From Candidatus Kaiserbacteria bacterium (GTDB lineage: Bacteria > Patescibacteriota > Minisyncoccia > Phycocordibacterales > UBA918), in NCBI GenBank assembly GCA_020428795.1, contig JAGQME010000001.1, positions 24,178 through 88,177 of the forward strand: a stretch of 64,000 nucleotides of DNA, read 5' to 3'. Shown piece after piece: positions 1,994 to 55,144 of this stretch. The notes below the pieces were generated by a model that was not told the DNA's origin, made no database searches, and saw nothing but the letters and a program-made list of their open reading frames with translations. A program made the translations under genes and the position numbers. Numbering within the stretch: position 1 is the first letter of the stretch; every line of letters starts with the position of its first letter.

Positions 1994-2094
1994 GTTGTAG
2001 ATTGTAATTTTTTGTGGACTCACGGAAATGAGCTTGGTAGTCATCAGGGTGTCTTTGACTCCGGAGTTTTGGTATATCGTGACTTATTTTCTCG

Positions 2095-4506
2095 CTAGTA
2101 ATCAATGCTGGTAACGACATTACCAATATGGGCTAACACATGCTCTTTGCCATCTTTATCAAAATACCGAGCATCGTATGTTGTTGCTCCGATTTCGGGC
2201 TTACTTGAGACAGGTAGTGCAAATTCGGTCTGATTTGTAGCGTTTTCTACAAACTGTAAGATTAAACTTTTTGCTTTTGTAGCGTCAGCATTACTGCGCA
2301 CAATCTCATTAGATTCATCAGTCAGCACTACACGTTTGTTCGGATTTTGGATGTAATCAGAAGCTAGTATTTCCATGACCTGATCGTTATCGTTCTCCTT
2401 GATCCAATCGGGTAACCTGTCGAAATGTTCCCAATCAGCAATATTGTCAACTCTAGGTATGAAGACTAGTACATTTTGAGGTTCTTCCATTTCTCCTTCT
2501 GCACTTTTGAAACGTTGCGTTCGTCCATCTTTGAGATAGGTATATACAGAACCTTTGGCTGTTGTAATAGATTTTGGTACCTTAACTTCCTCGACCTCAT
2601 CTTCTGTTGTTTGAGTTTCAGGTTGATTCGGTTGTTTTTGTAGTTGTTTCCATTGGCTAAAATTACCGTCCATGTATGCCCAGAAGGCAGTTCTGTCGGT
2701 TAGCGTTTCTTTTGGAAAACCTACTTGTTCAAGAGCGCCAGGATATTGTTGTTCATAAACTTGATTAAGTTTGAAAATATCATTTTGATTTCGAGCCCGA
2801 ATCCATGGAACCACTTCGCTTTCAACTATTAACATTGACTGCTCTCCATTCTCTGTTTCAAAAGTTTCAATGGTTCCAATTATAAAACCACGATCAATTT
2901 TATCTTGCCAATCCGCAGTCTCTTCTTTATTGGCTGTAATCTTTTTGTATGGATATTCGGTACGAAAAATTTCAGCAGGCATTTTTTCAAGTCCGCTAGC
3001 TTTAACTCCAGCAACTCGGTGCGTACCGTCAAAGACAGAATAAATTGGTCCGGCTGGGCCTTCATAACTAGCCAGCTTAATTCTATCTCCTAGTTTATCT
3101 TCCGTATGGAAAATTCTTTCAACCCCGGCTTCATTTTCTGGGTTATTTATCTGGTCAACAATTTCTCCAATTCGACCTTTTCGTTCATTATACTCATGTG
3201 CCCATCCATCCTCATAATTATCAGCATTTGGACGACCAATTATTTTTTCAGTAGCAACCAACTCAAATGAGCCTTTATCAGCACGTGAAGGTTCAATATC
3301 ATAGAAACTTCTTGTATCAATAATAGGCTCGGCTTTTAACTTTTCATAGTCTGGTTCAGTATTTAAAGTTCCAGTAGCTTTTTCTGTTTGAATGTAGTTC
3401 ACAACACTGCTCTTACTGATTTCTTCGGTATTATTGATGATTGCTTCAACTTTCTCTTGATTTAATTGCTGTTGATCATTCGTAAGACTTTCGGTTATTA
3501 TACCCTCAAACGATTCTCTTGGCGTTTGAGTGATTTTGTCAGCGGGTGTTTCAGTTGAAGTGGGGTCTTCGGGTGATGGGTCATTCTGCTCATTTTTGAT
3601 ATCTGGAGCATTTGTTACCAAGCGTTCGTAATAAGCACTTTTTTGCGGAAATCGGTCACTAAATAATTTAATTGCTGTTTCTTCAGGGTTGTAATTAACA
3701 TTCCGTTTAAATAAACGATCATCATCGCTATTATATGTATCAGCTTCTCTCAGGCAGGCGGCAAAATCAGGGTCTTCTTTGATTGAGTTGGGTAATTCTT
3801 CATCAGTCACTCCACCAGCCATAATCGCATCTATTTGAGATTGAATCATTTCACGTTCTTTTGCTAAGGCTTCAATCTTTATTTTTTCTTGCGTTAACAC
3901 TTCGTAGCGATCTGACACTCCATTCATCTCAATCACCACATCCCGTCGGTTTAGTTTCAAGCGATCAGAGTCATCAGCTTCAATCATGGCATTTATTTCG
4001 TCTAACTCGCTTTGAAGTTTCTCTGTTGCTCGGTGGTTGCGTTCTAATCGTTCATTAAAACTTGCCTCTTGTTTGTCGAAGGATAAGAGTCTGTCTCGCA
4101 AGCTAGCTGTTTTACCGTCTAACACCTGCCCAGCAATAAAACTTTTTATGATCTCGTCCTTTTTATCCGGAGATTTTGGGTCTGCTTTGATAATATCAAT
4201 ATCAAGTTTGCTGCTGGTGATTCTGTGCTCTGCTTGATTGATTCGATTTTGTATTTCTGGTAGACGGTATTCAAAATGCGACGGCTCCGTTGTATTCGTG
4301 TCTTGCCACCTCTCCAGATCTATCAAGGCAGCATCTCGGTTAATTTCTGATAGACGAACTCCTTCTTCAAGAGCTTCAATACGTTCCTTTTTAGTATCTT
4401 CAATAGTTAAATTTCCAGCCTCAATCTTTTCTTTAGTACCAGGATTTTCATTCTGATTATTCTTTTCAATTGATGGTGTGGCGGGATTTTCAAATTCTTT
4501 TTGCAT
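2095..4506 (-). CDS. Large hypothetical protein: N-terminal coiled-coil/acidic half and a C-terminal region carrying a ParB/sulfiredoxin-like nuclease motif
   Basis: 803 aa, no signal peptide. N-half is low complexity and rich in E/K/D/Q with heptad-like character. Motif YSVFDGTHRVAGVKASGLEKMPAEIF (about aa 440-465) resembles the DGxHR...A core of ParB-like nuclease/Srx-fold domains. Starts 40 bp downstream of tRNA-Ala on the same strand. Confidence 0.5.
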   Translation of the reverse strand: MQKEFENPATPSIEKNNQNENPGTKEKIEAGNLTIEDTKKERIEALEEGVRLSEINRDAALIDLERWQDTNTTEPSHFEYRLPEIQNRINQAEHRITSSKLDIDIIKADPKSPDKKDEIIKSFIAGQVLDGKTASLRDRLLSFDKQEASFNERLERNHRATEKLQSELDEINAMIEADDSDRLKLNRRDVVIEMNGVSDRYEVLTQEKIKIEALAKEREMIQSQIDAIMAGGVTDEELPNSIKEDPDFAACLREADTYNSDDDRLFKRNVNYNPEETAIKLFSDRFPQKSAYYERLVTNAPDIKNEQNDPSPEDPTSTETPADKITQTPRESFEGIITESLTNDQQQLNQEKVEAIINNTEEISKSSVVNYIQTEKATGTLNTEPDYEKLKAEPIIDTRSFYDIEPSRADKGSFELVATEKIIGRPNADNYEDGWAHEYNERKGRIGEIVDQINNPENEAGVERIFHTEDKLGDRIKLASYEGPAGPIYSVFDGTHRVAGVKASGLEKMPAEIFRTEYPYKKITANKEETADWQDKIDRGFIIGTIETFETENGEQSMLIVESEVVPWIRARNQNDIFKLNQVYEQQYPGALEQVGFPKETLTDRTAFWAYMDGNFSQWKQLQKQPNQPETQTTEDEVEEVKVPKSITTAKGSVYTYLKDGRTQRFKSAEGEMEEPQNVLVFIPRVDNIADWEHFDRLPDWIKENDNDQVMEILASDYIQNPNKRVVLTDESNEIVRSNADATKAKSLILQFVENATNQTEFALPVSSKPEIGATTYDARYFDKDGKEHVLAHIGNVVTSIDY

Positions 4507-4546
4507 ACATTACTTATAATACACCCAGTCACTCGCCTCGTTCGCT

Positions 4547-4620
4547 TGGTGGACTCACGGGGAATCGAACCCCGAATTTATCCATGCCATGGATACGTAT
4601 TACCACTATACTATGAGCCC
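4547..4620 (-). tRNA. tRNA-Ala (anticodon GGC), CCA encoded
   Basis: Reverse complement GGGCTCATAGTATAGTGGTAATACGTATCCATGGCATGGATAAATTCGGGGTTCGATTCCCCGTGAGTCCACCA folds as a cloverleaf. Acceptor GGGCTCA/TGAGTCC has the G3:U70 Ala identity pair. D-stem GTAT/ATAC; anticodon loop ATGGCAT; T-arm CGGGG-TTCGATT-CCCCG. Confidence 0.85.
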
Positions 4621-10637: not shown

Positions 10638-12110
10638 CTATAAAACCTTATGTTCCTTAGCAATTTTTTGGAGAGCAGCCGTTTCTTCTTCTAACTGTTT
10701 TTTCTTGCCAGCTTCAGCTAGGTTTTTAAGCTCTGTTTCGTTCAGTAAATACAAGGCTTTAGCTCGGTTTTCCAGATATTCTTCAGTGTTTTTGCTAGGG
10801 TCTATCAACACCTCTTCCAACAGGGTGTGTAGGACATATCCAAGCTTTTTACCCGGTTTTTCCCCAGTAATATCCATAATTTTATCCCCATTTATCTTTA
10901 GCATCTTAACGGATATGGGGTCACGTAGCGCTTCGTCAACCATAGCTTTATATTTACGGAATCGAAACGGTTGCTCGTTGGGCCGACCGGTACCAATACG
11001 GTCACATACTCTTAGGTTCAGTAAGTCTTCAATATGTTCCTTACCGATTCTAACTATGGTACGGCGAACGGCAGCTAAGGTTATTTCGTCAGGATCTGAA
11101 AAAAACATATGCCACCGTACTAAATTCTCCACATTTTCACTCAATTCACTCGGTAGACGTAATCTAGACAGTATTTTCTTAGTCATTCTGGCTCCCACCA
11201 CTTCATGGCCATAAAATGTGTAATGCTTGTTTTTTCCTCCGGTTCGTCTGGTGGCTGGTTTGCCAATGTCATGGAGTAGAGCGGCTAGCCGTAGCTCGGT
11301 AGAGAAATTTTTATCAGCAGCGGCTTGCATAGTTCTTAGTAAGTGTTCATATACATCATATTTATGGATACCACCCTGTTCGCAACCAATTGAATTTTTG
11401 ATTTCTGGTAAAATATAATCAAGTAGTTCTAATTTTTCAAGGAAAATCAGGCCTTGCATCGGAGAGGTGGAATTGATAATTCTGATGAATTCACTAGCTA
11501 CTCTTTCAACTGAAATATGTTGAATTCGTTGACTATTTCGGACGATGGCGGTCATCGTCTCTAACTCAATTACAAAGCCCAATTCACTGGCTAGACGTAC
11601 GGCTCGCATCATTCGGAGAGCGTCTTCACCAAATCTTTGGTCCGGCACCCCAACTGTCTTTAATGTCTTCTCTGAAATGTCCTTTATGCCGTTGAATTCA
11701 TCCACTAATGTTTCATCTGATAGCTTGTAGGCAATAGCGTTAACGGTGAAGTCCCGCCTAGCCAAATCTTCCACTAAACTCACACCAAACTCGACTTTAT
11801 CGGGTCGTCTTGAATCAGAATATCCAGTCTCAAGCCGGTATGGTGTTACCTCCACTACTTTAAGGGTTTCGTCGGTTGTTTCTTCATTTTTTACCCCTAC
11901 TGTACCGTAATCATTATTACAAAAGCTGTCAGGAAACAGTTCTAGTATCTGATTAGGGTGAGCATTGGTGGTGATATCCCAGTCCTTAGGAGTTTTTTTG
12001 ATAAGTAAATCTCTTACACAGCCACCGACTAAATAGGCTTCAAAACCAGCGTTTTCTAAGGTTTCAGCTATCTTTCTTACCTCTAAAGGTATGTCACTCT
12101 TTTTAATCAT
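10638..12110 (-). CDS. cca: CCA-adding tRNA nucleotidyltransferase with HD domain
   Basis: Pol-beta head GGCVRDLLIKKTPKDWDITT; RLDxx...; HD domain LHDIGKPATR; 490 aa with a coiled-coil C-terminal extension. Confidence 0.88.
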   Translation of the reverse strand: MIKKSDIPLEVRKIAETLENAGFEAYLVGGCVRDLLIKKTPKDWDITTNAHPNQILELFPDSFCNNDYGTVGVKNEETTDETLKVVEVTPYRLETGYSDSRRPDKVEFGVSLVEDLARRDFTVNAIAYKLSDETLVDEFNGIKDISEKTLKTVGVPDQRFGEDALRMMRAVRLASELGFVIELETMTAIVRNSQRIQHISVERVASEFIRIINSTSPMQGLIFLEKLELLDYILPEIKNSIGCEQGGIHKYDVYEHLLRTMQAAADKNFSTELRLAALLHDIGKPATRRTGGKNKHYTFYGHEVVGARMTKKILSRLRLPSELSENVENLVRWHMFFSDPDEITLAAVRRTIVRIGKEHIEDLLNLRVCDRIGTGRPNEQPFRFRKYKAMVDEALRDPISVKMLKINGDKIMDITGEKPGKKLGYVLHTLLEEVLIDPSKNTEEYLENRAKALYLLNETELKNLAEAGKKKQLEEETAALQKIAKEHKVL

Positions 12111-12246: not shown

Positions 12247-12295
12247 CAATATTAAATCCCCCTTTTAAAAGGGGGATTTAATATTGTGCGCCTGC
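12238..12295. terminator. About 25-bp perfect palindrome that incorporates the 3' acceptor strand of tRNA-Arg
   Basis: GCAGGCGCACAATATTAAATCCCCC-TTTTAAAA-GGGGGATTTAATATTGTGCGCCTGC; the left arm begins inside the tRNA, and the core is the same AAATCCCCC/GGGGGATTT motif as the hairpin at 10588. Confidence 0.6.
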
Positions 12296-12383
12296 GAAAA
12301 AGTCTGGGAGGCTGTTTTGATAGGACTAGACAAGGTGTATCGAAACTGTACCGAGTGTTATTTAACAATGTATAATAATATTA

Positions 12384-12703: not shown

Positions 12704-14515
12704 TTAGGACACCAAATTTTTTGACCAAGCTTTTACAATATTTTGTATGTTGGCGATCCAGTCGTCAGAATTATTAACTTCACCAATACTATCAACAATT
12801 TTATCTATTAAGATCTTTAGGTTATTGTGGTTAAACTGCTTGTTCTCTTCTCGCAGTTGTTTGAGTGTTTTTAATAATTCAATAAATTGCTTGATGGTGA
12901 GAGGGGCGATTTTTTGCTTTTGGCCTTTATAACCAACGGTATTCGCAATATAAAAAGTCTCAGCACTGTCAGTGTGAATTGTAGGGGCTAAGAAGACACA
13001 ACGGGCATTATCGTGCTTGTTTTCAAAATCACGTAAGTGTCGCATGACGGGTTGTCCCTCATTAAACCATTGGTCACGGCCGTTTAACATTGTGACCTCA
13101 CAGATCATATTAAAGCTATTGTAGAAACATTCAATGTCAGCCAAGCCACCTGGTGCGGTTGAAGTTGGTTGATTGTCGTCACCGACTGGGTAATTTGGTT
13201 TGATTTCTTTTGCGTCGTTTAGGGCGTACAGTCCCATTGTTGTTAGGTATTCAAGCATTAAGGCTCGATTTTCTAGTTCAAATATTTTTTCTAGTTGCTC
13301 GATGTAATCAGTAATTGATGAAATTGGTTGTGATTTGAGACGATTATTTTTTTCTTGTAAATCTTTACGTATCAAGCGTAAATTACTGATATGTAACGCT
13401 AGATCATCTTCAGTCATGGCGGATATAGCCGGCTGTTCATCAACTGTTAAACCAAGTTCGCTTTGCAATTCGATTACATTTTGATAGAGAGTATTGGCAA
13501 TTTCCGACAATTTATCTTTAGTATGCCAAGGTAAAATAGGTTGATTATCATCAGATAGATAGGTTAAATAAGCTTTTTTATCTACAAATTGTTTGGGTTT
13601 ATAGAATTCACTTTCAAATAAAGCTTCAATCTCAGTGTGTCGATTAGGTTCTAGGTCAATGTAGAAGCCATTACCTCGAATACGAACAAAACTGGTTAGA
13701 CGAAAGTATCTAATCGCATTATCACCGTAATCTTGCAGGTTTGTAATGAGTTTATTAATTTTTGCTTGATTACCAGTTCCTAAGAAATTAGTAATGAATT
13801 GTTTACGATATTTATCACGTATTTTTTTGCGTTCGGATTTCGTCTTGCCATTTTGTAGGTTGCGTAATTCGATTATTTTTCTTGCGTAGGACTCAATATC
13901 AGTATATTTAACCAAAGATGGTACAAAGAGTGAAAATTCCCCCTTGCTAATCCCCTTCGCCTTCTGTCCTTGTTCCATCTCCAATCTATTGACGGTGCTG
14001 ATTAGCTTTAAAGTAGCCACAAAAGGCACAGTCCCGTAATTACCATCGTTAGTAAATTCATTACTAGCTGGATTAGGTATTTGCCATTTAATAAATGATT
14101 TTAAGAACACTTCACCGGTGTTTTGGTCATCTTTGATCAGTTTTTTACCCAGCTCGGTTATCTTTAAAATTCCGTTATCAATAATCACAAAGCCAAACTT
14201 AGTGAGCGGGTTTAACGATTGGCGACCCCGCATCGAAAAGTCGGTGTAATTTTTTAATCTGAGAATCCTATCAATCGTTTCGTCATTAATTTCTAAGTCG
14301 GTGTCATTTATATTATTGATGATGTCCGGAGTTAATCCATTATAAAATTGCGTGTTGCCAAAGCCATAAAGTCTGTTTTTTATCAAAAGTTTCTGATAAT
14401 TGGCTTGATTAGCCTTATCCCAAGGCTTATTTTCAAGTAATTTAGTCACCACCAAAAAATCACGGAGACGTTCTGGGTTTCTGACCGTTGTTGTGATAGA
14501 CCAAGCTTTTAGCAT
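12704..14515 (-). CDS. Type IIS restriction (or nicking) endonuclease, AlwI / N.BstNBI / PleI / MlyI family
   Basis: 603 aa. Segments NPLTKFGFVIIDNGILKITELGKKLIKDDQNTGEVFLKSFIKWQIPNP, AIRYFRLTSFVRIRGNGFYIDL and MLNGRDQWFNEGQPVMRHL...CVFLAPTI match the conserved blocks of the RE_AlwI family as I recall them for N.BstNBI. Adjacent to a two-domain methyltransferase. Confidence 0.72.
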   Translation of the reverse strand: MLKAWSITTTVRNPERLRDFLVVTKLLENKPWDKANQANYQKLLIKNRLYGFGNTQFYNGLTPDIINNINDTDLEINDETIDRILRLKNYTDFSMRGRQSLNPLTKFGFVIIDNGILKITELGKKLIKDDQNTGEVFLKSFIKWQIPNPASNEFTNDGNYGTVPFVATLKLISTVNRLEMEQGQKAKGISKGEFSLFVPSLVKYTDIESYARKIIELRNLQNGKTKSERKKIRDKYRKQFITNFLGTGNQAKINKLITNLQDYGDNAIRYFRLTSFVRIRGNGFYIDLEPNRHTEIEALFESEFYKPKQFVDKKAYLTYLSDDNQPILPWHTKDKLSEIANTLYQNVIELQSELGLTVDEQPAISAMTEDDLALHISNLRLIRKDLQEKNNRLKSQPISSITDYIEQLEKIFELENRALMLEYLTTMGLYALNDAKEIKPNYPVGDDNQPTSTAPGGLADIECFYNSFNMICEVTMLNGRDQWFNEGQPVMRHLRDFENKHDNARCVFLAPTIHTDSAETFYIANTVGYKGQKQKIAPLTIKQFIELLKTLKQLREENKQFNHNNLKILIDKIVDSIGEVNNSDDWIANIQNIVKAWSKNLVS

Positions 14516-14536
14516 GGTCTGATTATGGCATAAAAG

Positions 14537-16525
14537 CTAATAATTAGTAATAAGTACCTCTACGGTCTTGTTATTTTTAGCGCTGGAGTGATAGTTGGAA
14601 TTTTTGTAATGATAATCCAATTTATGGACTTGGTAATTATGTTCTTTGGCCCATTTCTTTATTATTTTGTTAACATCGCCTTTATGTTCTAAGACGTTTG
14701 ATAGAGCAAATCTTACCTTTTTCTCGTCCAGTCTAGTCAAAAGTGAATAAAGATCCTTCTCATCCTTTTCAGTCCAGCCCCCCATTTCATTATAGCTAGC
14801 TAGACCCAATAGATAAGGTGGATCTAGGTATACAAAATCATCTTTATCCAACTTAATAGTTTCAATATCACGAAAATCTCCATTTTTAAAGGTTATTGTC
14901 TTTTCATTTGATATTTGGTTAAAAGCCGCTACGTTTTTTCTAGAACTGCCATTGTAGTCTCGTTTACCGACTGGCAGATTAAAATCACCGCTCGAATTAA
15001 ATCTTATTTGGTTATTAAAGGCGTATAAAACCAGCACTAACAGTAAATCAATCTGAGTTTTGTCTTGATTAAACTCATTACGGAGTTTTAGAAAAGCTTT
15101 TTTATTGTATTTTCCTAAACCTACTGAGCTATCAGCTTTATAGTGGTCGTAACCTTTGATATAGCTCTGACTTAAGTTAAAACGCTGAATGATATTAATT
15201 ATTTTCTGGTTCAGATCTTCAAAATTGTTGTTTTGAATCAATTTTAACAAGTTAACAACGTTATGATTTTTTTCGACACAGACTATATTTTGGGCTGTGG
15301 CATTAATACCAACGTTTGCACCACCGGAAAACACATCATAAAAAGTCTTAATGTCATCGGGAAAGAATTTTGTGATTTGCGGTAGAAGTTTGTGTTTACC
15401 ACCGGTGTAATTTAACGGCGATTTAACAAAACCACTTTGGACAGGGTTGTTTCTTGAAGCCATTATTTTCCGGCTTGAATTTGAAGAGACATTTACTTTG
15501 CACAAAAATATACGTTCCTTCAGATCATCTTTATTGGATTTACCGGTGGTAAATTGTCTAAAGTTAGTTTCAAAAACCTTTGTCTCTCCTCGTCTTTTTA
15601 AGGCTGATAGTATTTCATGGTCACTAATTCTCGACTGTGATCTCACATTTCCAGCTGTACCCATATCGTTATAAGAAACAAGAATGTATTTAGCTTTGAT
15701 GTTATCTATCAAATCACCAAAAGCAACCCCGGCCGATTTCATGTTGTATTTACTTTTGATGTGCGAACGGTCCATTTTTTTAGCAACTCCAAAAACCGCC
15801 CCTTTTTTCCAGGTAGCAATATTTTCTAGTAAATGATAAGCATCGGAATACTGTCTCGAATTATACGGTGGATCAATATAAACAATGTCGGCTTCTATTT
15901 TTTTTACCAATTCATTAGCGTCTTCTTTGTATATTTCAGTTAGACGAGTAGATTTTTTTAGTTCTAGAGGCAATAGAAAAAGCTTCTTTTCGGGAATGTC
16001 TATTTTTCTATAGGCGTCATAATGACCAACAGTGTTAGCGATTTTATCTAAGGCGTAAATTAACGATGTTATTAGATAGGCTTTCTCTCGGTAAGTGATT
16101 ACCTTTTTTTTAAATAATCCTTCAATATCGTCCCTAATAAAGCCTATTTTCTTAGCGTTTTCAGCGTCAAAATAAGTGTTAGAGAAGTTTTTAGAGAAGT
16201 AATTTTCTGGGTATTTTTGGGCTATTATATTGTTATAATACTTTAGTTTTTCTCTTAATTTTTTTTCTTGTATTTTGTCTTTACCAAAAAAAGCGGTGTA
16301 TACATAAGAATTTGAGTCCAAAATATCGTTTACGATAATTTTAGATTGATCATAAAAGTGATTGGCCACGGTACCGGTACCGGCAAAAATATCAGCAAAT
16401 GAATCAAATTTTATGTTTTCATCTCTTATTATTTTGTCTATAAAAGATAGAAGTTTGGTTTTAGAACCAAGATAGCGTCTCTGGGCCAGGTTAACCTTTT
16501 TATTTCCAAAATAGGCATCTTGCAT
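14537..16525 (-). CDS. Fused two-domain N6-adenine DNA methyltransferase (two Dam/D12-class modules), type IIS modification enzyme
   Basis: 662 aa with two copies of motif I + motif IV: FADIFAGTGTV ... VYIDPPYNSRQY and FYDVFSGGANVG ... VYLDPPYLLGLASY. Tandem MTase modules are typical for asymmetric type IIS sites. Confidence 0.85.
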   Translation of the reverse strand: MQDAYFGNKKVNLAQRRYLGSKTKLLSFIDKIIRDENIKFDSFADIFAGTGTVANHFYDQSKIIVNDILDSNSYVYTAFFGKDKIQEKKLREKLKYYNNIIAQKYPENYFSKNFSNTYFDAENAKKIGFIRDDIEGLFKKKVITYREKAYLITSLIYALDKIANTVGHYDAYRKIDIPEKKLFLLPLELKKSTRLTEIYKEDANELVKKIEADIVYIDPPYNSRQYSDAYHLLENIATWKKGAVFGVAKKMDRSHIKSKYNMKSAGVAFGDLIDNIKAKYILVSYNDMGTAGNVRSQSRISDHEILSALKRRGETKVFETNFRQFTTGKSNKDDLKERIFLCKVNVSSNSSRKIMASRNNPVQSGFVKSPLNYTGGKHKLLPQITKFFPDDIKTFYDVFSGGANVGINATAQNIVCVEKNHNVVNLLKLIQNNNFEDLNQKIINIIQRFNLSQSYIKGYDHYKADSSVGLGKYNKKAFLKLRNEFNQDKTQIDLLLVLVLYAFNNQIRFNSSGDFNLPVGKRDYNGSSRKNVAAFNQISNEKTITFKNGDFRDIETIKLDKDDFVYLDPPYLLGLASYNEMGGWTEKDEKDLYSLLTRLDEKKVRFALSNVLEHKGDVNKIIKKWAKEHNYQVHKLDYHYKNSNYHSSAKNNKTVEVLITNY

Positions 16526-16696: not shown

Positions 16697-17359
16697 ATGG
16701 TTCGAGATGAAAAAAAGCTAGAAATGGCAACGTATTATCGCAAGCGGGGTTTTTCTTATTCTGAGATAGCTAAAATAGTGGGAGTTTCAAAAGGTACAGT
16801 GAGTGCTTGGCTTAGTAAAAAATCCTTTTCAAAGAAGATAAAAACAGAAAATATCGCCCGTTCAGCTAAAGATAGCGCTACTCGACTGAGGTTGATTAAT
16901 TCAGCTCGCTATAAAGAACGTAGTAAGTTGTATGCACAAACCATAAAAGATGCTAAAACCCAATTTAAGCTCTACAAAAAAGACCCGCTATTTATCGCTG
17001 GCCTAATGCTCTACCGTAGCGTTGGGGCCAGTAAAGATGAAAGATTGATTAGGGTCACTAACTCAGAGTTAGATATTCATCGGATATTTATTAAGTTTAG
17101 TAAGACTTATTTAGGAGTAGAAAAAGACCAGATCAAGTTTTGGCTCCTGCTCTACCCTGATTTAGTTGAGAAAAGCTGTGTTAATTATTGGTCTAAAGGC
17201 TTAAAACTAAAATCTGCTCAGTGGTATAAAAATCAGGTTGTTTCTGGGCGAAGTAAAAAACAAACATTGCTTTATGGAGTTGGAAATACTATAATCGGAG
17301 GCACTGTTTTAAGGTTGAGGTTGATCACTTGGGTGGAGTTAGCTTTAAAAGAGTTGTAG
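16697..17359 (+). CDS. Hypothetical protein with N-terminal helix-turn-helix
   Basis: 220 aa; FSYSEIAKIVGVSKGTVSAWL is an HTH (sigma region-4/resolvase-type); the remainder is basic with no recognisable domain; lies between the R-M genes and tRNA-Gly. Confidence 0.4.
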   Translation: MVRDEKKLEMATYYRKRGFSYSEIAKIVGVSKGTVSAWLSKKSFSKKIKTENIARSAKDSATRLRLINSARYKERSKLYAQTIKDAKTQFKLYKKDPLFIAGLMLYRSVGASKDERLIRVTNSELDIHRIFIKFSKTYLGVEKDQIKFWLLLYPDLVEKSCVNYWSKGLKLKSAQWYKNQVVSGRSKKQTLLYGVGNTIIGGTVLRLRLITWVELALKEL

Positions 17360-17377
17360 GTACAATTAAATATAAAT

Positions 17378-17448
17378 GCGGCCATGGTTAAGTGGTATAA
17401 TGAGTCCTTGCCAAGGATTAGTCGGGAGTTCGATTCTCCCTGGCCGCA
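17378..17448 (+). tRNA. tRNA-Gly (anticodon GCC), CCA not encoded
   Basis: GCGGCCATGGTTAAGTGGTATAATGAGTCCTTGCCAAGGATTAGTCGGGAGTTCGATTCTCCCTGGCCGCA. Acceptor GCGGCCA/TGGCCGC; anticodon stem AGTCC/GGATT with loop TTGCCAA; T-arm GGGAG-TTCGATT-CTCCC. Confidence 0.88.
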
Positions 17449-17451
17449 CAA

Positions 17452-17480
17452 AGAAAAAAGACCTCCAAGGGTCTTTTTTT
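17452..17480 (+). terminator. Intrinsic terminator directly after tRNA-Gly
   Basis: AAAAAAGACCTCCAAGGGTCTTTTTTT. Confidence 0.55.
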
Positions 17481-17600
17481 GACTGTGGCCAGGGGCGTAG
17501 CTTTGTGCATACAAAGCGTTGCGCAGAATCGAAAAGCTTTTGTGATACTTTTGAGCTTTACAGCGAAAAAGTATCCAAAAGGTGTACAGAATCTGTAAGA

Positions 17601-17621
17601 TTCGATTCTCCCTGGCCGCAC
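17601..17621 (+). repeat. 21-nt perfect direct repeat of the 3' end of tRNA-Gly(GCC), T-loop through discriminator
   Basis: TTCGATTCTCCCTGGCCGCAC is identical to the tRNA 3' end. Upstream segments TGTGGCCAGGGG (17485-17496) and GAATCGAA (17526-17533) are complementary to it. Confidence 0.85.
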
Positions 17622-17630
17622 CCAATCAAT

Positions 17631-17664
17631 CAAACCCGCCAAAACAAGTGTTTTGGCGGGTTTG
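17631..17664 (+). terminator. Intrinsic terminator closing the tRNA-Gly trailer module
   Basis: CAAACCCGCCAAAACA-AGTG-TTTTGGCGGGTTTG, perfect 14-bp stem. Confidence 0.65.
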
Positions 17665-19747: not shown

Positions 19748-19900
19748 TTATCCCCAGTGTCCCATAGAAACCATAATTTGGGGACAAAAGTGGATAACCG
19801 AGTGGATAGGTGGATAAAGGACAGAAGCCATTTGTCCTTTAAAGAATAAACAAACTATGTTTTTAGCCATTTTCTATTAAAATCGCTATTTTTATCCAAA
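19748..19900. promoter_or_regulatory. Cluster of DnaA-box-like 9-mers next to an AT-rich tract (candidate DnaA-binding region)
   Basis: TTATCCCCA (19748), AGTGGATAA (19789), AGTGGATAG (19801), GGTGGATAA (19809) and TTATCCAAA (19892), each within 1-2 mismatches of TTATCCACA or its complement TGTGGATAA; followed by an A/T-rich segment. Confidence 0.35.
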
Positions 19901-20141
19901 AAATCTAATAATACGTTTCACGTGAAACATATGACCAGTTTGTTTCATATGAAACGGATTGAAGGTGATAGGTTTATATCCCAGCTTCTTTATCGCGACA
20001 AATAGTTTAATGCTTAATATTTAAGCGTTTGAGCTTAATTTAGTTAATTAAGATATGTTCCATGTGTAACCAATGGTAATAATTAAGCACTTTATTAAAG
20101 TATTATAGAGCTTGGCGACAGATTGGTGCTATGATTAGTCT

Positions 20142-21292: not shown

Positions 21293-21363
21293 CGGGGTGT
21301 AGCATAGTGGTAGTGTACGCGGTTTGGGACCGTGTGGTCCGGGTTCGATTCCCGGCTCCCCGA
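21293..21363 (+). tRNA. tRNA-Pro (anticodon TGG), CCA not encoded; acceptor stem has one T-T mismatch and the D-stem is short
   Basis: CGGGGTGTAGCATAGTGGTAGTGTACGCGGTTTGGGACCGTGTGGTCCGGGTTCGATTCCCGGCTCCCCGA. Anticodon stem CGCGG/CCGTG with loop TTTGGGA; T-arm CCGGG-TTCGATT-CCCGG. Imperfect acceptor and D arms lower confidence. Confidence 0.7.
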
Positions 21364-21364
21364 C

Positions 21365-21406
21365 AAATTATAATACCCACAGGATTTCCTGTGGGTATTA
21401 TAATTT
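21365..21406 (+). terminator. Perfect 19-bp-stem hairpin directly after tRNA-Pro
   Basis: AAATTATAATACCCACAGGA-TTT-CCTGTGGGTATTATAATTT. Confidence 0.65.
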
Positions 21407-21492
21407 TCGCTAGGGAATCGAAGCCCGATTGAGCTATTTTGAGAACGAAGTGAATCAAAATAGCCAATTGGGATACTGTTCGTGTTGCGAAA

Positions 21493-21513
21493 GATTCCCG
21501 GCTCCCCGACAAA
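21493..21513 (+). repeat. 21-nt perfect direct repeat of the 3' end of tRNA-Pro, T-loop through trailer
   Basis: GATTCCCGGCTCCCCGACAAA is identical to 21343-21363 plus 3 trailer nt. Upstream GGGAATCGAAGCCCGA (21413-21428) is an inverted, slightly mutated copy of the T-arm. Confidence 0.85.
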
Positions 21514-30854: not shown

Positions 30855-31991
30855 ATGATAAATATTAATATCTGTAAAAAAGTCTCACAACCAACTGGAT
30901 ATATAGCGTCAATACCAGAAACTTTTCCTAATAAGGACCTTTTTAATGTACCACCAAATATTTTATTTAAGGCGGTAGAAGCAGAAAGATTGATTGGTAA
31001 GTTGGACGGTATCACCTTAACTCTTCCGGACATAAATTTTTTCCTCAGAATGTTTTCATATAAAGATGCTACCTCTTCAGCTCAAATAGAAGGCACACAA
31101 GCAACTATGGCTGAGGCTTTGGCTGTAGAAGCAGAGATAGAAAATGATAAAACCGATGCCTCTGATATTATTTTCTATATAAAAGCTTTAGAGTACGGAA
31201 TTGAAAGACTTAAAGAATTTCCAATATCACTTCGGTTCATTCGTGAGATCCATGCCAAACTTATGGATGGTGCTAGGTCAACTCATTTTGCTGATCCTGG
31301 AGAATTTAGAAAAAGTCAGAATTGGATTGGAGGCACAAACTTAAGTAATGCTACTTTTGTTCCTGTACCTCATACCGAAATGAACTTATGTTTAGGTGAT
31401 TTAGAAAAATTTCTTTATGATGACGCCGCCACTCTACCACTAATTTCTATTGCTTACGCTCATGCACAATTTGAAACCATTCACCCTTTTTTGGATGGTA
31501 ACGGTCGGGTGGGTAGACTTCTGATAACTTTTCTCCTTATGAAAAAAGGAGTGTTGGAAAAACCGGTGTTATTTTTATCTTCTTATTTTAATAAATACAA
31601 AAAGATTTATTACGATAAACTCAGTGGATATCATGACGATGGAGATGTTTTTGGATGGGTAGATTTTTTTCTAGACGGTGTTATTGAGACAGCGAATGAA
31701 GCTATTAAGATTTCAGGTGAAATAAGACAAATTAGGGACAGAGATATGGCTAAGATACAAAGTTTATCAAAACGTGAATCAGATAGTGGGGTAAAGGTTC
31801 TTAATTATTTGTTTGAAAATCCAATTATTACTACAAAAAGTATTATGAACATTACGGGCTTTACTCGAGCTGGTGCTCAGGGTGTAATAGATCGTTTTGT
31901 TGGACTGGGCATCTTGGTGGAAGAAAATAAGGAAAGTAATTACGATGTAAAGTATACGTACGAAGAATACTTTATGGCGTTTGTAAGATAA
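30855..31991 (+). CDS. Fic/DOC family protein with C-terminal winged-helix domain
   Basis: Fic motif HPFLDGNGRVGRLLITFLL (HPFx[DE]GNGR); 378 aa. Confidence 0.9.
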   Translation: MININICKKVSQPTGYIASIPETFPNKDLFNVPPNILFKAVEAERLIGKLDGITLTLPDINFFLRMFSYKDATSSAQIEGTQATMAEALAVEAEIENDKTDASDIIFYIKALEYGIERLKEFPISLRFIREIHAKLMDGARSTHFADPGEFRKSQNWIGGTNLSNATFVPVPHTEMNLCLGDLEKFLYDDAATLPLISIAYAHAQFETIHPFLDGNGRVGRLLITFLLMKKGVLEKPVLFLSSYFNKYKKIYYDKLSGYHDDGDVFGWVDFFLDGVIETANEAIKISGEIRQIRDRDMAKIQSLSKRESDSGVKVLNYLFENPIITTKSIMNITGFTRAGAQGVIDRFVGLGILVEENKESNYDVKYTYEEYFMAFVR

Positions 31992-42529: not shown

Positions 42530-44284
42530 ATGCGTATTCAAGATGAACAACTAAAACGATTTATAGGCGACGCTGGTCTGGTTAGTAAAAAAGATATCGC
42601 TGAAGCGGAGAAAGTAGCTAAGGAGGAAAAGAGAACTCTGGCTGAAGCTTTGATTGCGTCTGGAACCATGACTGAAGACGATATGCGTCGAGTAGAGTCT
42701 TATGTGTTAGGTATCCCTTTTGTTTCTCTCAAAGGAGTTAAGGTGGATTTTTCCATATTGTCATTAATACCAGAGCCGGTAGCTCGCAACCACAATATTA
42801 TTGCTTTTAAAAAGAACGAAGAGTCGTTGGAAGTAGCTATGCTAGATACTGCTGATTTACCAGCGATAGATTTCATAAAGAAAAAAGTTGGACTAAAAAT
42901 ATTGCCCCGTCTAACTGATACAGAGTCAATGAAATCGGCTCTTTTGCAGTATCAGAAAACTCTCAAAGATGAATTTGGTGACCTAATAATGAAAGAAACA
43001 TCGGCTTTGAAAACTATTGCCGAAGATACCGGTGAGGAAGCTACTGAAGAAGATCTAAAGAAAATGGCCGAAGATTTGCCAGTGGTCAGAATAGTGGATA
43101 CCTTATTGAGGCACGCTATTATTCAAGGTGCTTCTGATATTCATATTGAACCTATGGAGGAGTCTGTTTTGGTGCGTTATCGAATCGACGGCATCTTGCA
43201 CGATGCCATGACTTTACCTAAAAACGCCGCTCCTACCATAGTGGCTAGATTAAAAGTTTTATCAAATCTCAAACTCGATGAAAAAAGATTGCCACAAGAT
43301 GGCCGGTTTAAGATGGAAATGGATGGCCAAAAAGTTTCCTTCCGAGTTTCGATTCTACCAATTTTCTTCGGTGAGAAAGTAGTAATGCGTTTACTGCGAG
43401 AAAATCGTTCTGGTTTTACCTTAGAAGGAATTGGTTTTCACGGTTCTTCTTTAGAAAGGTTGCAAGATGCCATGAAACAAACCACTGGCATAATTTTGGT
43501 AACGGGACCAACTGGTTCTGGTAAAACTACCAGCCTCTATACCGTGCTGGATCTACTTAATACCCCAGAAGTAAATATTTCTACTATTGAAGACCCGGTC
43601 GAATACCAAATGCCTAGAATAAACCAGACCCAAGTTAAATCGGAGATCGGTTTTACTTTTGCCACCGGTTTGCGTTCCTTAATGCGTCAAGACCCAGACA
43701 TTATTATGGTTGGTGAGATTCGTGATAAAGAGACTGCCAGTCTAGCCATTAACGCCGCTTTGACCGGTCACTTAGTATTGGCCACTGTTCACACTAATTC
43801 TTCTTCTGGTACGGTGGCTCGTTTGGTAGATATGGGAGTAGAGACATTTTTGCTGGTCTCAACCCTAAGAGTAGCGGTTGGGCAAAGACTGGTGAGGCGA
43901 TTGCGTGAAGACGCTAGAGAACCGTATAAACTTAGTTCTGATGAAAAAAGTGAGTTAGGTAAACACGCTGATATGGATAAGGTTTTGGAGGTTCTAAAAG
44001 AAGAGCAAATTATTGCCAATAATGCTACGTGGAACAGTGTTGATTTTTATCACGCTAAAGATGTGCCAGAGGGGGAAGAGGCCTATAAGGGTAGAATCGG
44101 TATCCACGAAATATTGCCGATGAGTCCATCTATAAAAGAAATGGTTATGTCCGGAGCTACCGCTGATCAAATTCAAGAACAAGGGCGTAAAGAAGGGATG
44201 CTCACTATGCTTGAAGACGGTATCTATAAGGCCGCCAAAGGTTTGACTACAATTGAGGAAGTATTGCGAGTAATTAACGAGTAA
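42530..44284 (+). CDS. pilB: Type IV pilus assembly ATPase PilB / GspE family
   Basis: 584 aa; GSPII_E N-terminal domains; Walker A ILVTGPTGSGKTTSL; Asp/His boxes; tetracysteine-less variant. Confidence 0.9.
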   Translation: MRIQDEQLKRFIGDAGLVSKKDIAEAEKVAKEEKRTLAEALIASGTMTEDDMRRVESYVLGIPFVSLKGVKVDFSILSLIPEPVARNHNIIAFKKNEESLEVAMLDTADLPAIDFIKKKVGLKILPRLTDTESMKSALLQYQKTLKDEFGDLIMKETSALKTIAEDTGEEATEEDLKKMAEDLPVVRIVDTLLRHAIIQGASDIHIEPMEESVLVRYRIDGILHDAMTLPKNAAPTIVARLKVLSNLKLDEKRLPQDGRFKMEMDGQKVSFRVSILPIFFGEKVVMRLLRENRSGFTLEGIGFHGSSLERLQDAMKQTTGIILVTGPTGSGKTTSLYTVLDLLNTPEVNISTIEDPVEYQMPRINQTQVKSEIGFTFATGLRSLMRQDPDIIMVGEIRDKETASLAINAALTGHLVLATVHTNSSSGTVARLVDMGVETFLLVSTLRVAVGQRLVRRLREDAREPYKLSSDEKSELGKHADMDKVLEVLKEEQIIANNATWNSVDFYHAKDVPEGEEAYKGRIGIHEILPMSPSIKEMVMSGATADQIQEQGRKEGMLTMLEDGIYKAAKGLTTIEEVLRVINE

Positions 44285-44288
44285 TAAA

Positions 44289-45515
44289 ATGCCTACTTTT
44301 ATTTATCATGGTAAAGACGATAAAGACATAAAGGTTTCTAAGACTGTTGAAGCCACTGACCGTTATGCAGTTTATGAAATTGCCCGCAACAATGGACACA
44401 CGGTCACTTCAATTGATGAACAAAAGAAACATTCACTTAAAGCCATCTTTAATATCCAACGACTAGAGTATCTGATGAGTCGGGTTAAAGATGATGAGCT
44501 AGTCATGGTGACTAGAAATTTAGGTTCCATGTTGGTGGCTGGCTTACCTCTCTCTAGAGCTTTGTCGGTGATTGAGAGACAGAGTAAAAACCCTCGGCTT
44601 AAAGGGGTGATGAGTGATATAAGAGAAAAAATAAACGAAGGTTCGCAATTTTACGAGGCTTTAGAGGCTTATCCTAAGGTATTTAGTAATCTGTACATAG
44701 CAATGGTCAGAGCAGGAGAAGAAAGCGGCGGTCTTTCAGAAGCTCTAAAAACCCTAAGTGTTCAAATGGAAAGATCTTCTAATTTAAAGAAGAAGATTAA
44801 AGGAGCCATGATTTATCCAGCGATTGTGATTGTTATCTTGGTTATTATTGGAATCTTAATGATGATTTTTGTTATGCCTTCCATCACTGGTACCTTTAAA
44901 AGTCTAGATGTCGAGCTACCGACTACGACCAAGATCCTAATCACTGTTAGTGATTTTATGGCGGCTAATACCGTAGCAACCCTGATCGGACTGATTTCTT
45001 TTGTGTTGGGCGGAATTTATTTTTTGAGAACCAAAGCTGGTCATATCACTACTTCATATATTATTCCTAAATTGCCAGTTATCGGCAAAATAGCCAAAGA
45101 AGTAAACGCCGCTCGCACCTCAAGGACCCTATCTTCTTTGTTGTCGTCTGGGGTTGATGTGATTCGGGCCTTAAATATCACCGAAGAGGTGGTACAAAAT
45201 GTTTTTTATAAAAAAATTATTGCGGAGGCGGCCGTTAGAGTTGAAAAGGGTACACCACTTTCTGAGGTGTTTATTGAACGAGAAGATTTGTATCCGGTTT
45301 TGGTGGGGGAGATGATCTTGGTGGGTGAAGAAACCGGAGATATTTCTCACATGCTACATGAACTAGCTATTTTTTATGAAAATGAAGTGGAACAAAAAAC
45401 CAAGGACCTCTCGACTATTATCGAGCCGATACTGATGGTGGTGATCGGTGGAGCAGTTGGTTTCTTTGCTCTCGCTATGATTGCTCCGATCTATTCTATT
45501 GGCGATAGTATTTAA
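44289..45515 (+). CDS. pilC: Type IV pilus inner-membrane platform protein PilC / GspF family
   Basis: 408 aa, duplicated GspF domains, three TM segments, ends ...IAPIYSIGDSI. Confidence 0.9.
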   Translation: MPTFIYHGKDDKDIKVSKTVEATDRYAVYEIARNNGHTVTSIDEQKKHSLKAIFNIQRLEYLMSRVKDDELVMVTRNLGSMLVAGLPLSRALSVIERQSKNPRLKGVMSDIREKINEGSQFYEALEAYPKVFSNLYIAMVRAGEESGGLSEALKTLSVQMERSSNLKKKIKGAMIYPAIVIVILVIIGILMMIFVMPSITGTFKSLDVELPTTTKILITVSDFMAANTVATLIGLISFVLGGIYFLRTKAGHITTSYIIPKLPVIGKIAKEVNAARTSRTLSSLLSSGVDVIRALNITEEVVQNVFYKKIIAEAAVRVEKGTPLSEVFIEREDLYPVLVGEMILVGEETGDISHMLHELAIFYENEVEQKTKDLSTIIEPILMVVIGGAVGFFALAMIAPIYSIGDSI

Positions 45516-45519
45516 TCTT

Positions 45520-47310: not shown

Positions 47311-47325
47311 ATTAGTGTAAAGTTT

Positions 47326-47940
47326 ATGTTTAACAAAATTTTCTTAAAAAGAGGCATGACATTAGTTGAAATGATGGTAGCAGTTAGTTTGTTTTCCATT
47401 TTGACATTAGTAGTCACTAGTAGTATTAACGCAATGTATCGTTACAACTCTTACACCTTCGCTCAAGCCTATCAAGTACAAAACGCTCGCCTTGGTATGC
47501 AGTCTTTGATTCGTGATGTGCGAGAAATGACCTTTGCTGATGATGGTACTTTTCCGCTAGCTATCATGGAGGAAAATAAAATTGCTTTTTATAGTGATAT
47601 TGATAGAGATAATAGTGTTGAGTATGTAGAGTTTTCCTACAATGGTACAACAACAATAATTAAAAATGTCTACAATGCAACTGGCAGCCCACTTACATAT
47701 AACCTAGGTTCACCGGACGAAACATATACTCTTTCAAGGTATGTGCAGAATAATATACAGGGAACTTCTACTTTTATGTATTATGATAATGATGGAAATC
47801 AATTATTTTCACCATCTGACATTACTGATGTTCGTTTTGTCCAAGCTCAGATTATTGTAAATATAGATCCGGTTCGTGACCCTGGGCAGTTTATGCTTCG
47901 CTCCAGCGCTTCATTACGTAATGTTAAAGAAAATATATGA
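47326..47940 (+). CDS. Prepilin-type minor pilin / pseudopilin
   Basis: G-MTLVEMMVAVSLFSIL prepilin N-terminal motif; 204 aa. Confidence 0.6.
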   Translation: MFNKIFLKRGMTLVEMMVAVSLFSILTLVVTSSINAMYRYNSYTFAQAYQVQNARLGMQSLIRDVREMTFADDGTFPLAIMEENKIAFYSDIDRDNSVEYVEFSYNGTTTIIKNVYNATGSPLTYNLGSPDETYTLSRYVQNNIQGTSTFMYYDNDGNQLFSPSDITDVRFVQAQIIVNIDPVRDPGQFMLRSSASLRNVKENI

Positions 47941-53824: not shown

Positions 53825-54241
53825 ATGAATAAAATTATTGCTTACACCGATGGCGGAGCGAGAGGTAATCCAGGACCGGCCGGAATCGGAGTTTATATTA
53901 CTGACGAATCAGGAAAGGTTTTAAAAGAAGTAAAGGAAGCGATCGGTAATAGCACTAATAATTTTGCTGAATACAATGCGGTTTTGGTGGCTTTGCAGAC
54001 TCTAAAGCAACTCTATGGCAAAAAATCCAAAGAAATGTCGTTTGAAATCCGTCTGGATAGTGAATTGGTTAAAAAACAATTAAATGCCGAGTATCAGATC
54101 AAAGAACCTGGTTTAGTGCCAATGTTTATTGAAATACACAATCTAAGGGTGGCCAATTTTCCCAACCTAATCCTCACTCATGTTCCCCGTGAAAAAAATA
54201 AAGAAGCCGACCGGTTGGTCAATGAAGCCCTTGATGCCTGA
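53825..54241 (+). CDS. rnhA: Ribonuclease HI
   Basis: IIAYTDGGARGNPGPAGIGVYI ... AEYNAVLVAL ... EADRLVNEA: RNase H type 1 catalytic D-E-D-D pattern. Confidence 0.8.
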   Translation: MNKIIAYTDGGARGNPGPAGIGVYITDESGKVLKEVKEAIGNSTNNFAEYNAVLVALQTLKQLYGKKSKEMSFEIRLDSELVKKQLNAEYQIKEPGLVPMFIEIHNLRVANFPNLILTHVPREKNKEADRLVNEALDA

Positions 54242-55115: not shown

Positions 55116-55144
55116 TAAGTGTGCAGAGTTTTTTATTTTATACA

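Follow-up and report, generated by a model that had tools for sequence, protein, structure and literature searches.

We analysed a 64,000-nucleotide stretch (hereafter the window) of contig JAGQME010000001.1 from a Candidatus Kaiserbacteria bacterium, which belongs to the ultra-small Patescibacteria of the class Paceibacteria. A total of five tRNA genes were called in the window with ARAGORN and Rfam. Behind one of them, tRNA-Gly(GCC), lies a small module (module 1; 17378-17664 with the tRNA) in which the last 21 nt of the tRNA are repeated exactly. The original prediction, made from the letters of the window, had read an intact tRNA, an inverted copy of its 3' end, a spacer and the exact repeat at this locus, and each of these is confirmed. 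The features are listed here; Px and P0 to P3 denote paired elements, and L numbers denote loci or contigs from other assemblies.

17378-17448/9, plus strand: intact tRNA-Gly(GCC), CCA not encoded (ARAGORN; Rfam RF00005, 65 bits)
17429-17449, plus strand: proximal copy of the 21-nt repeat, spanning the tRNA from its T-loop to its 3' end
17453-17480, plus strand: hairpin and T-run, terminator-like by eye, no call in a consensus scan
17484-17494, plus strand: part 1 of the 5' arm (5' strand of P0 in the fold), complement of the 3' strands of the tRNA acceptor and T-stem, with two G-U pairs
17495-17524, plus strand: Px hairpin inserted within the 5' arm, of the conserved type GCGYAGCTTT...AAAGCGTTGCGC, also present in L055 and at other loci
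17525-17533, plus strand: part 2 of the 5' arm (5' strand of P1), complement of the T-loop copy; covarying helix 1
17535-17583, plus strand: P2, a long hairpin with the tip motif GA-[mini-hairpin]-GAA
17585-17597, plus strand: P3, a hairpin with a UGUAA loop; the conserved junction GUACAG stands just before it
17601-17621, plus strand: distal copy of the 21-nt repeat, which is the 3' arm (3' strand of P1, 17601-17609; 3' strand of P0, 17610-17620)
17523-17615, plus strand: match to the type-A core covariance model R1, 72.1 bits, the sequence itself being in the seed alignment
17631-17664, plus strand: second strong hairpin, past the module

The repeat TTCGATTCTCCCTGGCCGCAC is identical at 17429-17449 and 17601-17621, and the chance expectation of such a 21-nt repeat inside 250 nt is about 1e-10. 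The inverted copy consists of TGTGGCCAGGGG at 17484-17495 and GAATCGAA at 17526-17533; the second segment lies exactly where it had been placed, but the first is one base to the left of the predicted 17485-17496. The predicted RNA fold of 17483-17624 has an energy of -66.8 kcal/mol (z = -8.9), and none of 200 shuffled sequences was as good. In this fold, the 5' arm and the distal repeat form helices of 11 bp (17484-17494 with 17610-17620) and 9 bp (17525-17533 with 17601-17609), and the hairpin at 17495-17524 sits between the two 5' strands of this closing helix. Since both helices use the distal repeat, the T-loop copy is base-paired, in agreement with the helix of about 20 bp that had been proposed. 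Folding of the whole transcript gives an alternative, in which the tRNA body pairs with the distal repeat and the upstream repeat pairs with the 5' arm across the hairpin. Module 1 is identical (100%) in two other assemblies.

Both hairpins that had been called terminators are visible (17453-17480, with its T-run, and 17631-17664), but the consensus scan of the plus strand flagged neither, and thus 'terminator' is a reading by eye. The hairpin at 17631-17664 is probably the original terminator of tRNA-Gly(GCC).

The fold of the tRNA-sense strand is conserved. We aligned 39 type-A cores of about 90 nt, including that of module 1, and found a three-way junction of P1, P2 and P3. In P1, the anti-T-loop segment and the T-loop copy are paired; P2, the long hairpin with the GA-[mini-hairpin]-GAA tip, is followed by the conserved junction (G)RUACUG; P3 has 4-5 bp and a UGUAA loop. 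Compensatory changes are found in 25 of the 28 core pairs, and 95.5% of the cells are paired in the alignment compared to 74.0% in shuffles. The covariation score is 0.549 compared to 0.150 in shuffled alignments, none of which (0/500) reached it, and slid controls gave 0.05-0.11. Among at least 121 distinct cores of one subtype (A1, defined below), P3 shows four Watson-Crick pair types per position. Around this core, the 5' arm (the complement of tRNA positions ~54/56-72) and the downstream repeat form the closing helix. The tRNA-sense strand is more stable than its complement in all 106 modules compared (mean -62.0 versus -53.9 kcal/mol), and with DNA parameters this top strand is favoured in 104 of the 106. 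A second core type (type B) could be aligned with MAFFT only too poorly for a consensus structure. The modules are therefore conserved, structured single-stranded nucleic acids, as judged by compensatory changes and strand asymmetry. Of the suggestion that they are structured tRNA-trailer small RNAs, it is the structure that covariation and sense-strand asymmetry bear out.

Modules at other tRNA genes and their turnover

The same plan was expected, and is found, behind tRNA-Pro and behind tRNA-Gly(TCC) (module 3), and two further sites in the window hold decayed modules:

21293-21363, plus strand: tRNA-Pro(TGG) (ARAGORN, Rfam)
21365-21510, plus strand: tRNA-Pro module of 146 bp, with hairpin, 5' arm, P2, P3 and an 18-nt distal repeat (21493-21510)
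32466-32396, minus strand: tRNA-Gly(TCC) (ARAGORN, Rfam)
32395-32181, minus strand: type-B module, with hairpin, 5' arm (32350-32345 and 32319-32312), a larger core and a 20-nt distal repeat (32200-32181)
32180-32080, minus strand: probable decayed second module, with a partial third copy of the tRNA-Gly(TCC) 3' end, GGACTTCACCCGCAC, at 32094-32080
about 12248-12355, plus strand: decayed module after tRNA-Arg(TCG), with hairpin, 10-nt inverted copy GTGCGCCTGC, Px hairpin of the CTGGGAG type and remnant junction

The folds of the tRNA-Pro and tRNA-Gly(TCC) modules have z scores of -5.2 and -5.5, respectively. The tRNA-Pro module matches model R1 at 21412-21504 with 98.6 bits, and the only covariance-model matches in the window are the two type-A modules (98.6 and 72.1 bits). 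The type-B module also has a hairpin (32340-32325) inserted within its 5' arm; homologues of it are present at tRNA-Gly(TCC) of L001, L004-L006, L008, L011, L016, L019 and L020, and this second core type is common to most tRNA-Gly(TCC) loci of relatives. The decayed module after tRNA-Arg(TCG) has lost its distal repeat, and no small module is present at tRNA-Ala. The tRNAs at the three window modules score 62-73 bits with Rfam. We reject the objection that whole tRNA regions were segmentally duplicated, which had been raised with the prediction, since the repeats are confined to 18-21 nt.

The three modules noted in the window underestimate the family, which covers about a third of the tRNA genes in the whole bacterial class. 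We fetched loci of relatives through their CorA gene (60-71% protein identity); these have the same four tRNAs in variable gene order and orientation. A downstream repeat, which the original prediction proposed to look for at further tRNAs, is found with a length of at least 14 nt at 23 of the 73 tRNAs of the window and the CorA-linked loci, always 75-324 nt away, and none of these 73 tRNAs has a repeat beyond 324 nt downstream. Module presence differs between tRNAs and between relatives, some sites being filled and some without. In the CorA-linked relatives, the repeat and the inverted copy track each genome's own T-stem sequence. Covariance-model matches in relatives, a second check that had been suggested, fall only at tRNA-adjacent sites and on the tRNA strand.

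The subtype A1 comprises type-A cores with the P2 base CCCGATTG/CAATTGGG, from which we derived a two-part pattern for a scan of metagenomes, the contigs of which may be chimeric. Across all sequences scanned there are at least 131 type-A1 cores, at least 92 of them with a tRNA on the same strand within 600 nt upstream. These tRNAs represent at least 31 anticodons and at least 16 amino acids, and among the matches listed the arms of the modules match the local tRNA. At the 76 other, unselected tRNAs on those metagenome contigs, a repeat of at least 12 nt occurs in 21 cases, 18 of which also have the inverted copy. Of the tRNA genes sampled in relatives, about 30% are followed by a module.

In general, the cassette is 110-220 bp long and gene-less, and its bounding repeats are 18-24 nt. 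A hairpin with a T-run usually follows the upstream repeat copy and belongs to the cassette; modules in L033, L045 and L082 have no intervening terminator. Px hairpins fall into few conserved types, and the type of module 1 recurs at tRNA-Gly(GCC) in L055.

In L034, L035, L040, L096 and L141, a conserved sequence of ~30 nt, AAAGTTGTCGAACCAACTCCAGCTCGGCGCAC, stands upstream of A1 modules at the place expected for a tRNA 3' end, and no tRNA was detected near it in these five. It resembles a tRNA 3' end with short insertions and, from this resemblance, may be the 3' arm of another module type.

The modules are gained and lost as units. The 146-bp tRNA-Pro module is exactly missing from four contigs of the same species (L023-L026), the flanks of which are 99.7-100% identical; these carry a single tRNA-Pro 3' end, that is, one repeat copy, followed by the same downstream sequence, and the frame of the indel is ambiguous within the repeat. 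This is the empty site that a comparison of sister genomes had been proposed to reveal, and one of the four samples carries module 1 at 100% identity. The cassette is thus a discrete indel bounded by two copies of the last 18-24 nt of the tRNA, the upstream copy of which completes an intact tRNA. The sampled relatives that share the window's orientation of tRNA-Pro toward the CorA gene (L003, L004, L006, L012 and L013) have no tRNA-Pro module (0 of 5). Parsimony therefore favours recent gain in the strain of the window, and the tRNA-Pro module is most simply such a gain.

Turnover is evident at other sites as well. L027, the closest relative with a complete contig (70% identical), has modules at none of the four tRNAs. 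Orthologous modules persist at tRNA-Gly(GCC) and tRNA-Gly(TCC) across genomes of 60-74% identity, and the core type at the same tRNA differs in L009 versus L004-L008. Among the matches listed, the tandem units are identical in L139 and L109, and those of L052 share one core but differ in their arms; L005 and L013 contain tandem arrays of unlike modules. Modules are also duplicated, truncated and lost. Of 26 cases with a decayed distal repeat, 23 have a 5' arm that still matches the real tRNA, although some of these cases are register artefacts. The arms and distal repeat of L111 fit a T-stem unlike that of the adjacent, otherwise identical tRNA, which suggests that 3' parts of tRNAs are exchanged by recombination. 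The family is therefore large, occurs behind most tRNA species, and is gained, lost, tandemly duplicated and decaying. The earlier idea of a family of miniature tRNA-targeting elements agrees with the same-species empty site, the patchy syntenic loci, the tandem arrays and the cores at at least 31 anticodons. That of deletion remnants of integrated elements is not supported, since the modules share a conserved, covarying architecture and never enclose genes.

Gene content and searches for known elements

There is no open reading frame (ORF) inside the modules. With the window's recombinase as the tblastn query, no tyrosine recombinase was found within 3 kb of about 120 module loci; the sole recombinase near modules in this search, found in L091, is an Xer orthologue at a distance of 4 kb. 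The window itself has a single tyrosine recombinase gene (called at 1076-1993; longest ORF from 1013), which is Xer-type, adjoins rpsO and lies 15 kb from module 1. It scores 140.6 bits against the 265-bit cutoff for integron integrases, Xer models fit it better, and it is of the housekeeping type. We clustered the 638 ORFs within 3 kb of modules, and the ten commonest clusters look like ordinary, syntenic housekeeping genes, for example, as read from sequence, RuvX, PilM, RbfA, TypA, RelA and a helix-turn-helix (HTH) protein. A linked protein is thus rejected by both the neighbour clustering and the negative recombinase search.

Known RNA and DNA elements were also considered. At the Rfam gathering threshold only tRNAs matched, and at E<=10 nothing credible matched modules 1 and 3. 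The junction strands (AAG, GAUACUG, none) misfit the hammerhead core in either orientation, and hammerhead and other small ribozymes were rejected; the GA...GAA motif is only a tandem G-A motif and not a ribozyme core. A group I or T-loop intron was rejected. A group I intron interrupts its tRNA, which must then be spliced, and has about 200 nt or more with a P3-P9 core, whereas here the tRNA is complete upstream of the module and the core has only about 90 nt. The fold of the whole transcript does look like that of a T-loop insertion, but no bacterial enzyme is known that removes a T-loop intron. Known tRNA introns of Patescibacteria sit in the anticodon loop (PMC13011429). Phage or plasmid origin was rejected because phage and plasmid collections gave no match. 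The A1 core pattern is absent from IMG/VR, and the 33 type-B and one type-A pattern matches there, which lie in high-GC coding DNA away from any tRNA, were dismissed as due to chance. TIGR-Tas arrays, which are also associated with the Candidate Phyla Radiation (CPR), have a different architecture. Larger islands marked by long-range repeats are not seen at the 73 tRNAs, apart from a weak candidate at tRNA-Ala. No promoter for the modules was found.

The prediction had named no described element of exactly this composition, and our searches agree: neither Rfam nor the full-text literature searched describes one, and the incomplete coverage of these searches makes this absence of evidence only.

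Possible origin and role of the modules

Comparison of the sequences leads us to favour, tentatively, the reading that the modules are cargo-less, structured, horizontally exchanged cassettes at tRNA 3' ends, which keep the tRNA intact and would be read through as trailer RNAs. Such non-autonomous cassettes would persist and spread by recombining through the tRNA segment that is repeated. Exchange between the two repeat copies would give precise loss and tandem duplication; in acquisition from relatives, the conserved tRNA would provide homology on the left, and the terminal repeat would serve as homology on the right or as att core. The presence of DNA-uptake genes (ComEC, pilus genes) makes imported DNA a plausible source, and, as no recombinase is encoded, host or trans-acting functions would have to act. 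Transcripts that start at the tRNA promoter would read through into the cassette. As its closing helix is a copy of the tRNA's acceptor/T-stem stack together with the discriminator base, RNase P, RNase Z and the CCA-adding enzyme could trim the cassette transcript, and such trimming might yield a discrete, stable RNA. The retention of the structure over family-level divergence suggests that the module RNA is selected, either for propagation of the element or by the host.

Several points weigh against this reading. Most modules sit behind a terminator-like hairpin, and no promoter was found. Loss and duplication through repeats of 18-24 nt need no dedicated mobility, and thus polymorphism alone is no proof of active insertion; moreover, homology of the RecA type is marginal at a length of 18-24 nt. 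With their G-U pairs and mismatches, the arms seem to be old and not newly templated. If the tRNA-like ends served processing only, neither the pairing of the T-loop copy nor the identity to the neighbouring tRNA would be needed. Retrieval of the A1 set by an exact pattern biases the conservation estimates for the P2 base, and some array structures may be assembly chimeras. Finally, no mechanism accounts for one scaffold with arms for at least 31 tRNA species.

It is possible, if doubtful, that the modules are a new class of protein-less, retargetable mobile element, which finds or recombines with its tRNA gene by base pairing and uses host enzymes only. The scaffold, a conserved RNA or top-strand single-stranded DNA (ssDNA), would then carry two exchangeable arms, complementary and identical to the last ~20 nt of the tRNA; we regard this picture, too, with more doubt than confidence. 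Arms that can be re-specified would explain the colonisation of nearly every tRNA species in a class by one scaffold. If the arms do guide targeting, a minimal element would occupy conserved genes without any protein, which is relevant to programmable insertion and to how tRNA-targeting integration arose.

If horizontally exchanged cassettes are the correct reading, about a third of the tRNA genes in a major, little-understood CPR lineage carry an unannotated structured element, and the tRNA 3' ends of reduced genomes are active recombination sites, where T-arms and 3' ends appear to be swapped between strains. The three-way junction with target-matched arms would be a new conserved RNA fold for structural and functional study. 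The module repeats can also confuse tRNA annotation, metagenome assembly and genomic-island predictors that use tRNA fragments.

Of known systems, the modules share most with tRNA-integrating islands and prophages of the tyrosine-integrase class with T-loop crossover and their gene-less derivatives, the cis-mobilizable elements (CIMEs), which likewise have direct repeats from the T-loop to the tRNA 3' end, intact tRNAs, empty sites and tandem accretion, together with the hairpins of integron attC and CTX-phage attP(+) sites. By analogy, a module may best be likened to an att-flanked, gene-less integrative element (CIME-like) joined to an attC/CTX-like hairpin that mimics the target. However, unlike islands and CIMEs, the modules have no integrase in or near the element, are only 110-220 bp and gene-less, and carry an inverted target copy that pairs with the repeat; an integrase system is limited to one tRNA species, but a single conserved module scaffold is used at no fewer than 31. 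Small mobile repeats of the miniature inverted-repeat transposable element (MITE) kind (Correia/NEMIS, ERIC, REP/BIME) resemble the modules in being small, non-coding and present in many copies, in forming hairpins if co-transcribed and in lacking a transposase of their own. They differ from the modules, which have strict tRNA 3'-end specificity, long target-derived repeats instead of 2-10-bp duplications, and arms that differ for each target. The defining feature of each known family is missing from the modules, which have no integrase and no R-box, are not at dif and are not dispersed.

The analogy with attC and with the attP(+) of integrative mobile elements exploiting Xer (IMEX) leads to an explanation that we consider unlikely, namely that the module is a folded ssDNA attachment site in which the 5' arm and distal repeat rebuild the duplex tRNA gene from T-loop to 3' end. 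A tyrosine recombinase acting in trans, possibly host Xer, would exchange one strand pair with the tRNA gene in the T-loop, replication would resolve the junction, and the strand would be marked by the inserted Px hairpin, a role that extrahelical bases have in attC. Like those sites, the modules are imperfect hairpins of 100-150 nt with structure kept more than sequence and strand-specific folding. They likewise have an inverted and a direct target copy around a spacer of ~65-100 nt, which would rebuild a duplex mimic of the target, and their units accumulate in array-like fashion by a fixed site. Indeed, the order repeat, short 'genome' (hairpin), inverted copy, 65-100-nt spacer and repeat fits an integrated CTX-type element, the preference for the top strand holds with DNA parameters (104 of 106 modules), and module arrays resemble cassette arrays. 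The repeats have their boundaries in the T-loop, which is where integrases that target tRNA genes classically cross over, and P2 tips are often GCGAAGC, which as DNA also forms a very stable mini-hairpin. Uptake through the competence genes could be a source of incoming ssDNA, and the window has one Xer-type recombinase. However, that gene stands in a housekeeping context by rpsO and recombinases are not linked to modules; the T-arm gives only 5-bp symmetric arms, unlike Xer sites; and no circular ssDNA source is known. The R-box of the R''-L''...L'-R' hairpin, with its GTTRRRY core, was not found at module junctions, and the module sites are tRNA 3' ends and not dif, at which IMEX integrate. 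Conserved unpaired nucleotides and tandem G-A motifs look more like tertiary features of RNA. The modules also differ from attC and CTX sites in their target, a tRNA gene instead of attI or dif, in having neither IntI nor an ORF nor a shown link to Xer, and in their repeats of 18-24 nt versus 6-7.

Alternatively, the modules could be host-selected, essentially immobile RNA trailers that control 3' processing or stability, or that sense or buffer the 3' half of the cognate tRNA, an explanation that we likewise judge improbable. The three-way match of tRNA end, 5' arm and 3' arm would be kept by selection or gene conversion, and presence or absence would reflect repeat-mediated deletion only. 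Precedents exist for RNAs that lie directly downstream of a tRNA or mimic it. In plant dicistronic tRNA-small nucleolar RNA genes, a non-coding RNA is made by tRNA-processing enzymes (work cited in PMC12045711), and MALAT1 mascRNA and bacterial YrlA are tRNA mimics (PMC4201824). The closing helix of the modules similarly copies the acceptor/T-stem stack, but in the modules the T-loop copy is paired and not looped, each copy mimics its own neighbour tRNA, presence is polymorphic, and the modules are known from sequence alone. In favour of such trailers, structure is kept with compensatory changes at the same tRNA over family-level divergence, the arms covary with each genome's T-stem, and the 5' arm matches the real tRNA in 23 of the 26 modules with a decayed distal repeat. 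In addition, the whole-transcript fold gives the 5' arm two alternative partners, and the L033, L045 and L082 modules have no intervening terminator. Yet the distribution is patchy, with unlike core types at the same tRNA (L009 versus L004-L008) and tandem arrays of unlike modules (L005, L013); decay is frequent, and 70%-identical L027 lacks modules at all four tRNAs. Parsimony points to gain at tRNA-Pro, and a cis function that is essential would not be expected to be missing from some members of a species.

A retroelement-like logic, in which the 5' arm is a tRNA 3'-end primer-binding site (PBS), the terminal repeats are R regions and copies arise by reverse transcription and recombination, is very unlikely. 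The modules do share with retroviral and long terminal repeat (LTR) elements and with 3' tRNA fragments a complement of the last ~18-20 nt of the tRNA (the 5' arm) and a segment identical from T-loop to 3' end (the 3' arm). Retroviral PBS sequences use the same last ~18-20 nt, and an RNA running from the tRNA T-loop to the distal repeat would bear terminal direct repeats. However, the 5' arm has no CCA complement, the two segments pair mutually, and no reverse transcriptase was found in the window or near modules, an RVT_3 match at 53825-54241 being an RNase H domain. Patescibacteria are reported to have no group II introns (PMC13011429).

That the modules are inert scars, random deletion remnants of larger islands or prophages with attL, attR and little DNA surviving, is hardly credible. 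Such elements do usually leave direct repeats of the tRNA 3' end behind, some tRNA-module arrays have accessory genes nearby (Fic, RhuM-Fic, zeta toxin and a restriction-modification system), and a possible degenerate repeat lies 2.5 kb downstream of tRNA-Ala. However, the modules are homologues of each other with a fold that is conserved and covaries, they vary little in size, with no repeat beyond 324 nt in 73 tRNAs, and they show no similarity to phages, plasmids or viral contigs.

Other genes and features near the tRNAs

Type IV pilus and competence genes occupy 42530-47940 and 55121-56737 of the window and encode PilB, PilC, pilin-like proteins and ComEC. A gene for a Fic_N+Fic protein (30855-31991) follows module 3, and genes for a RhuM-Fic fusion and a zeta toxin lie by the module array of L035 (1540-2520). 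In L014, a NUDIX gene directly follows tRNA-Gly(TCC), and the Fic gene of the window therefore looks inserted. Between tRNA-Arg and tRNA-Gly(GCC), genes for an AlwI-type restriction endonuclease and a fused D12 adenine-methyltransferase occupy 12704-16525; since these two tRNAs are only about 1-1.3 kb apart in relatives, this segment looks like an inserted restriction-modification island.

The region after tRNA-Ala(GGC) (minus strand, 2014-4620) contains an AGCGAACGAGGCGAGTGAC motif like those of modules with no terminator. An 803-amino acid ORF past tRNA-Ala has no Pfam or PHROG match and contains a DGTHR motif (possibly ParB/DndB-like); it is present in three other contigs of the same species and is fixed in the species. 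A degenerate copy of the tRNA-Ala 3' end, ATTTCCGTGAGTCCAC, lies at about 2026-2011, 2.5 kb downstream of the tRNA and about 20 nt from the end of the Xer gene. Of the window's tRNAs, tRNA-Ala (4547-4620) alone encodes its CCA end and the other four do not; the gene for the CCA-adding enzyme (10638-12110) adjoins tRNA-Arg.

Just upstream of tRNA-Gly(GCC), in the window as well as in L027 and L111, is a gene for a 220-amino acid protein with an N-terminal HTH_23 domain (16697-17359), which has homologues in seven metagenome loci. Downstream, three GTGGATAA repeats that resemble DnaA boxes (19790-19817) and the palindromes GTTTCACGTGAAAC (19916) and GTTTCATATGAAAC (19943) form a cluster at 19790-19960, between mscS-like and UPF0102 genes, where the GC skew turns positive. 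From these signals, the cluster is probably the replication origin, and in relatives the DnaA-box-like cluster stands directly after tRNA-Gly(GCC).

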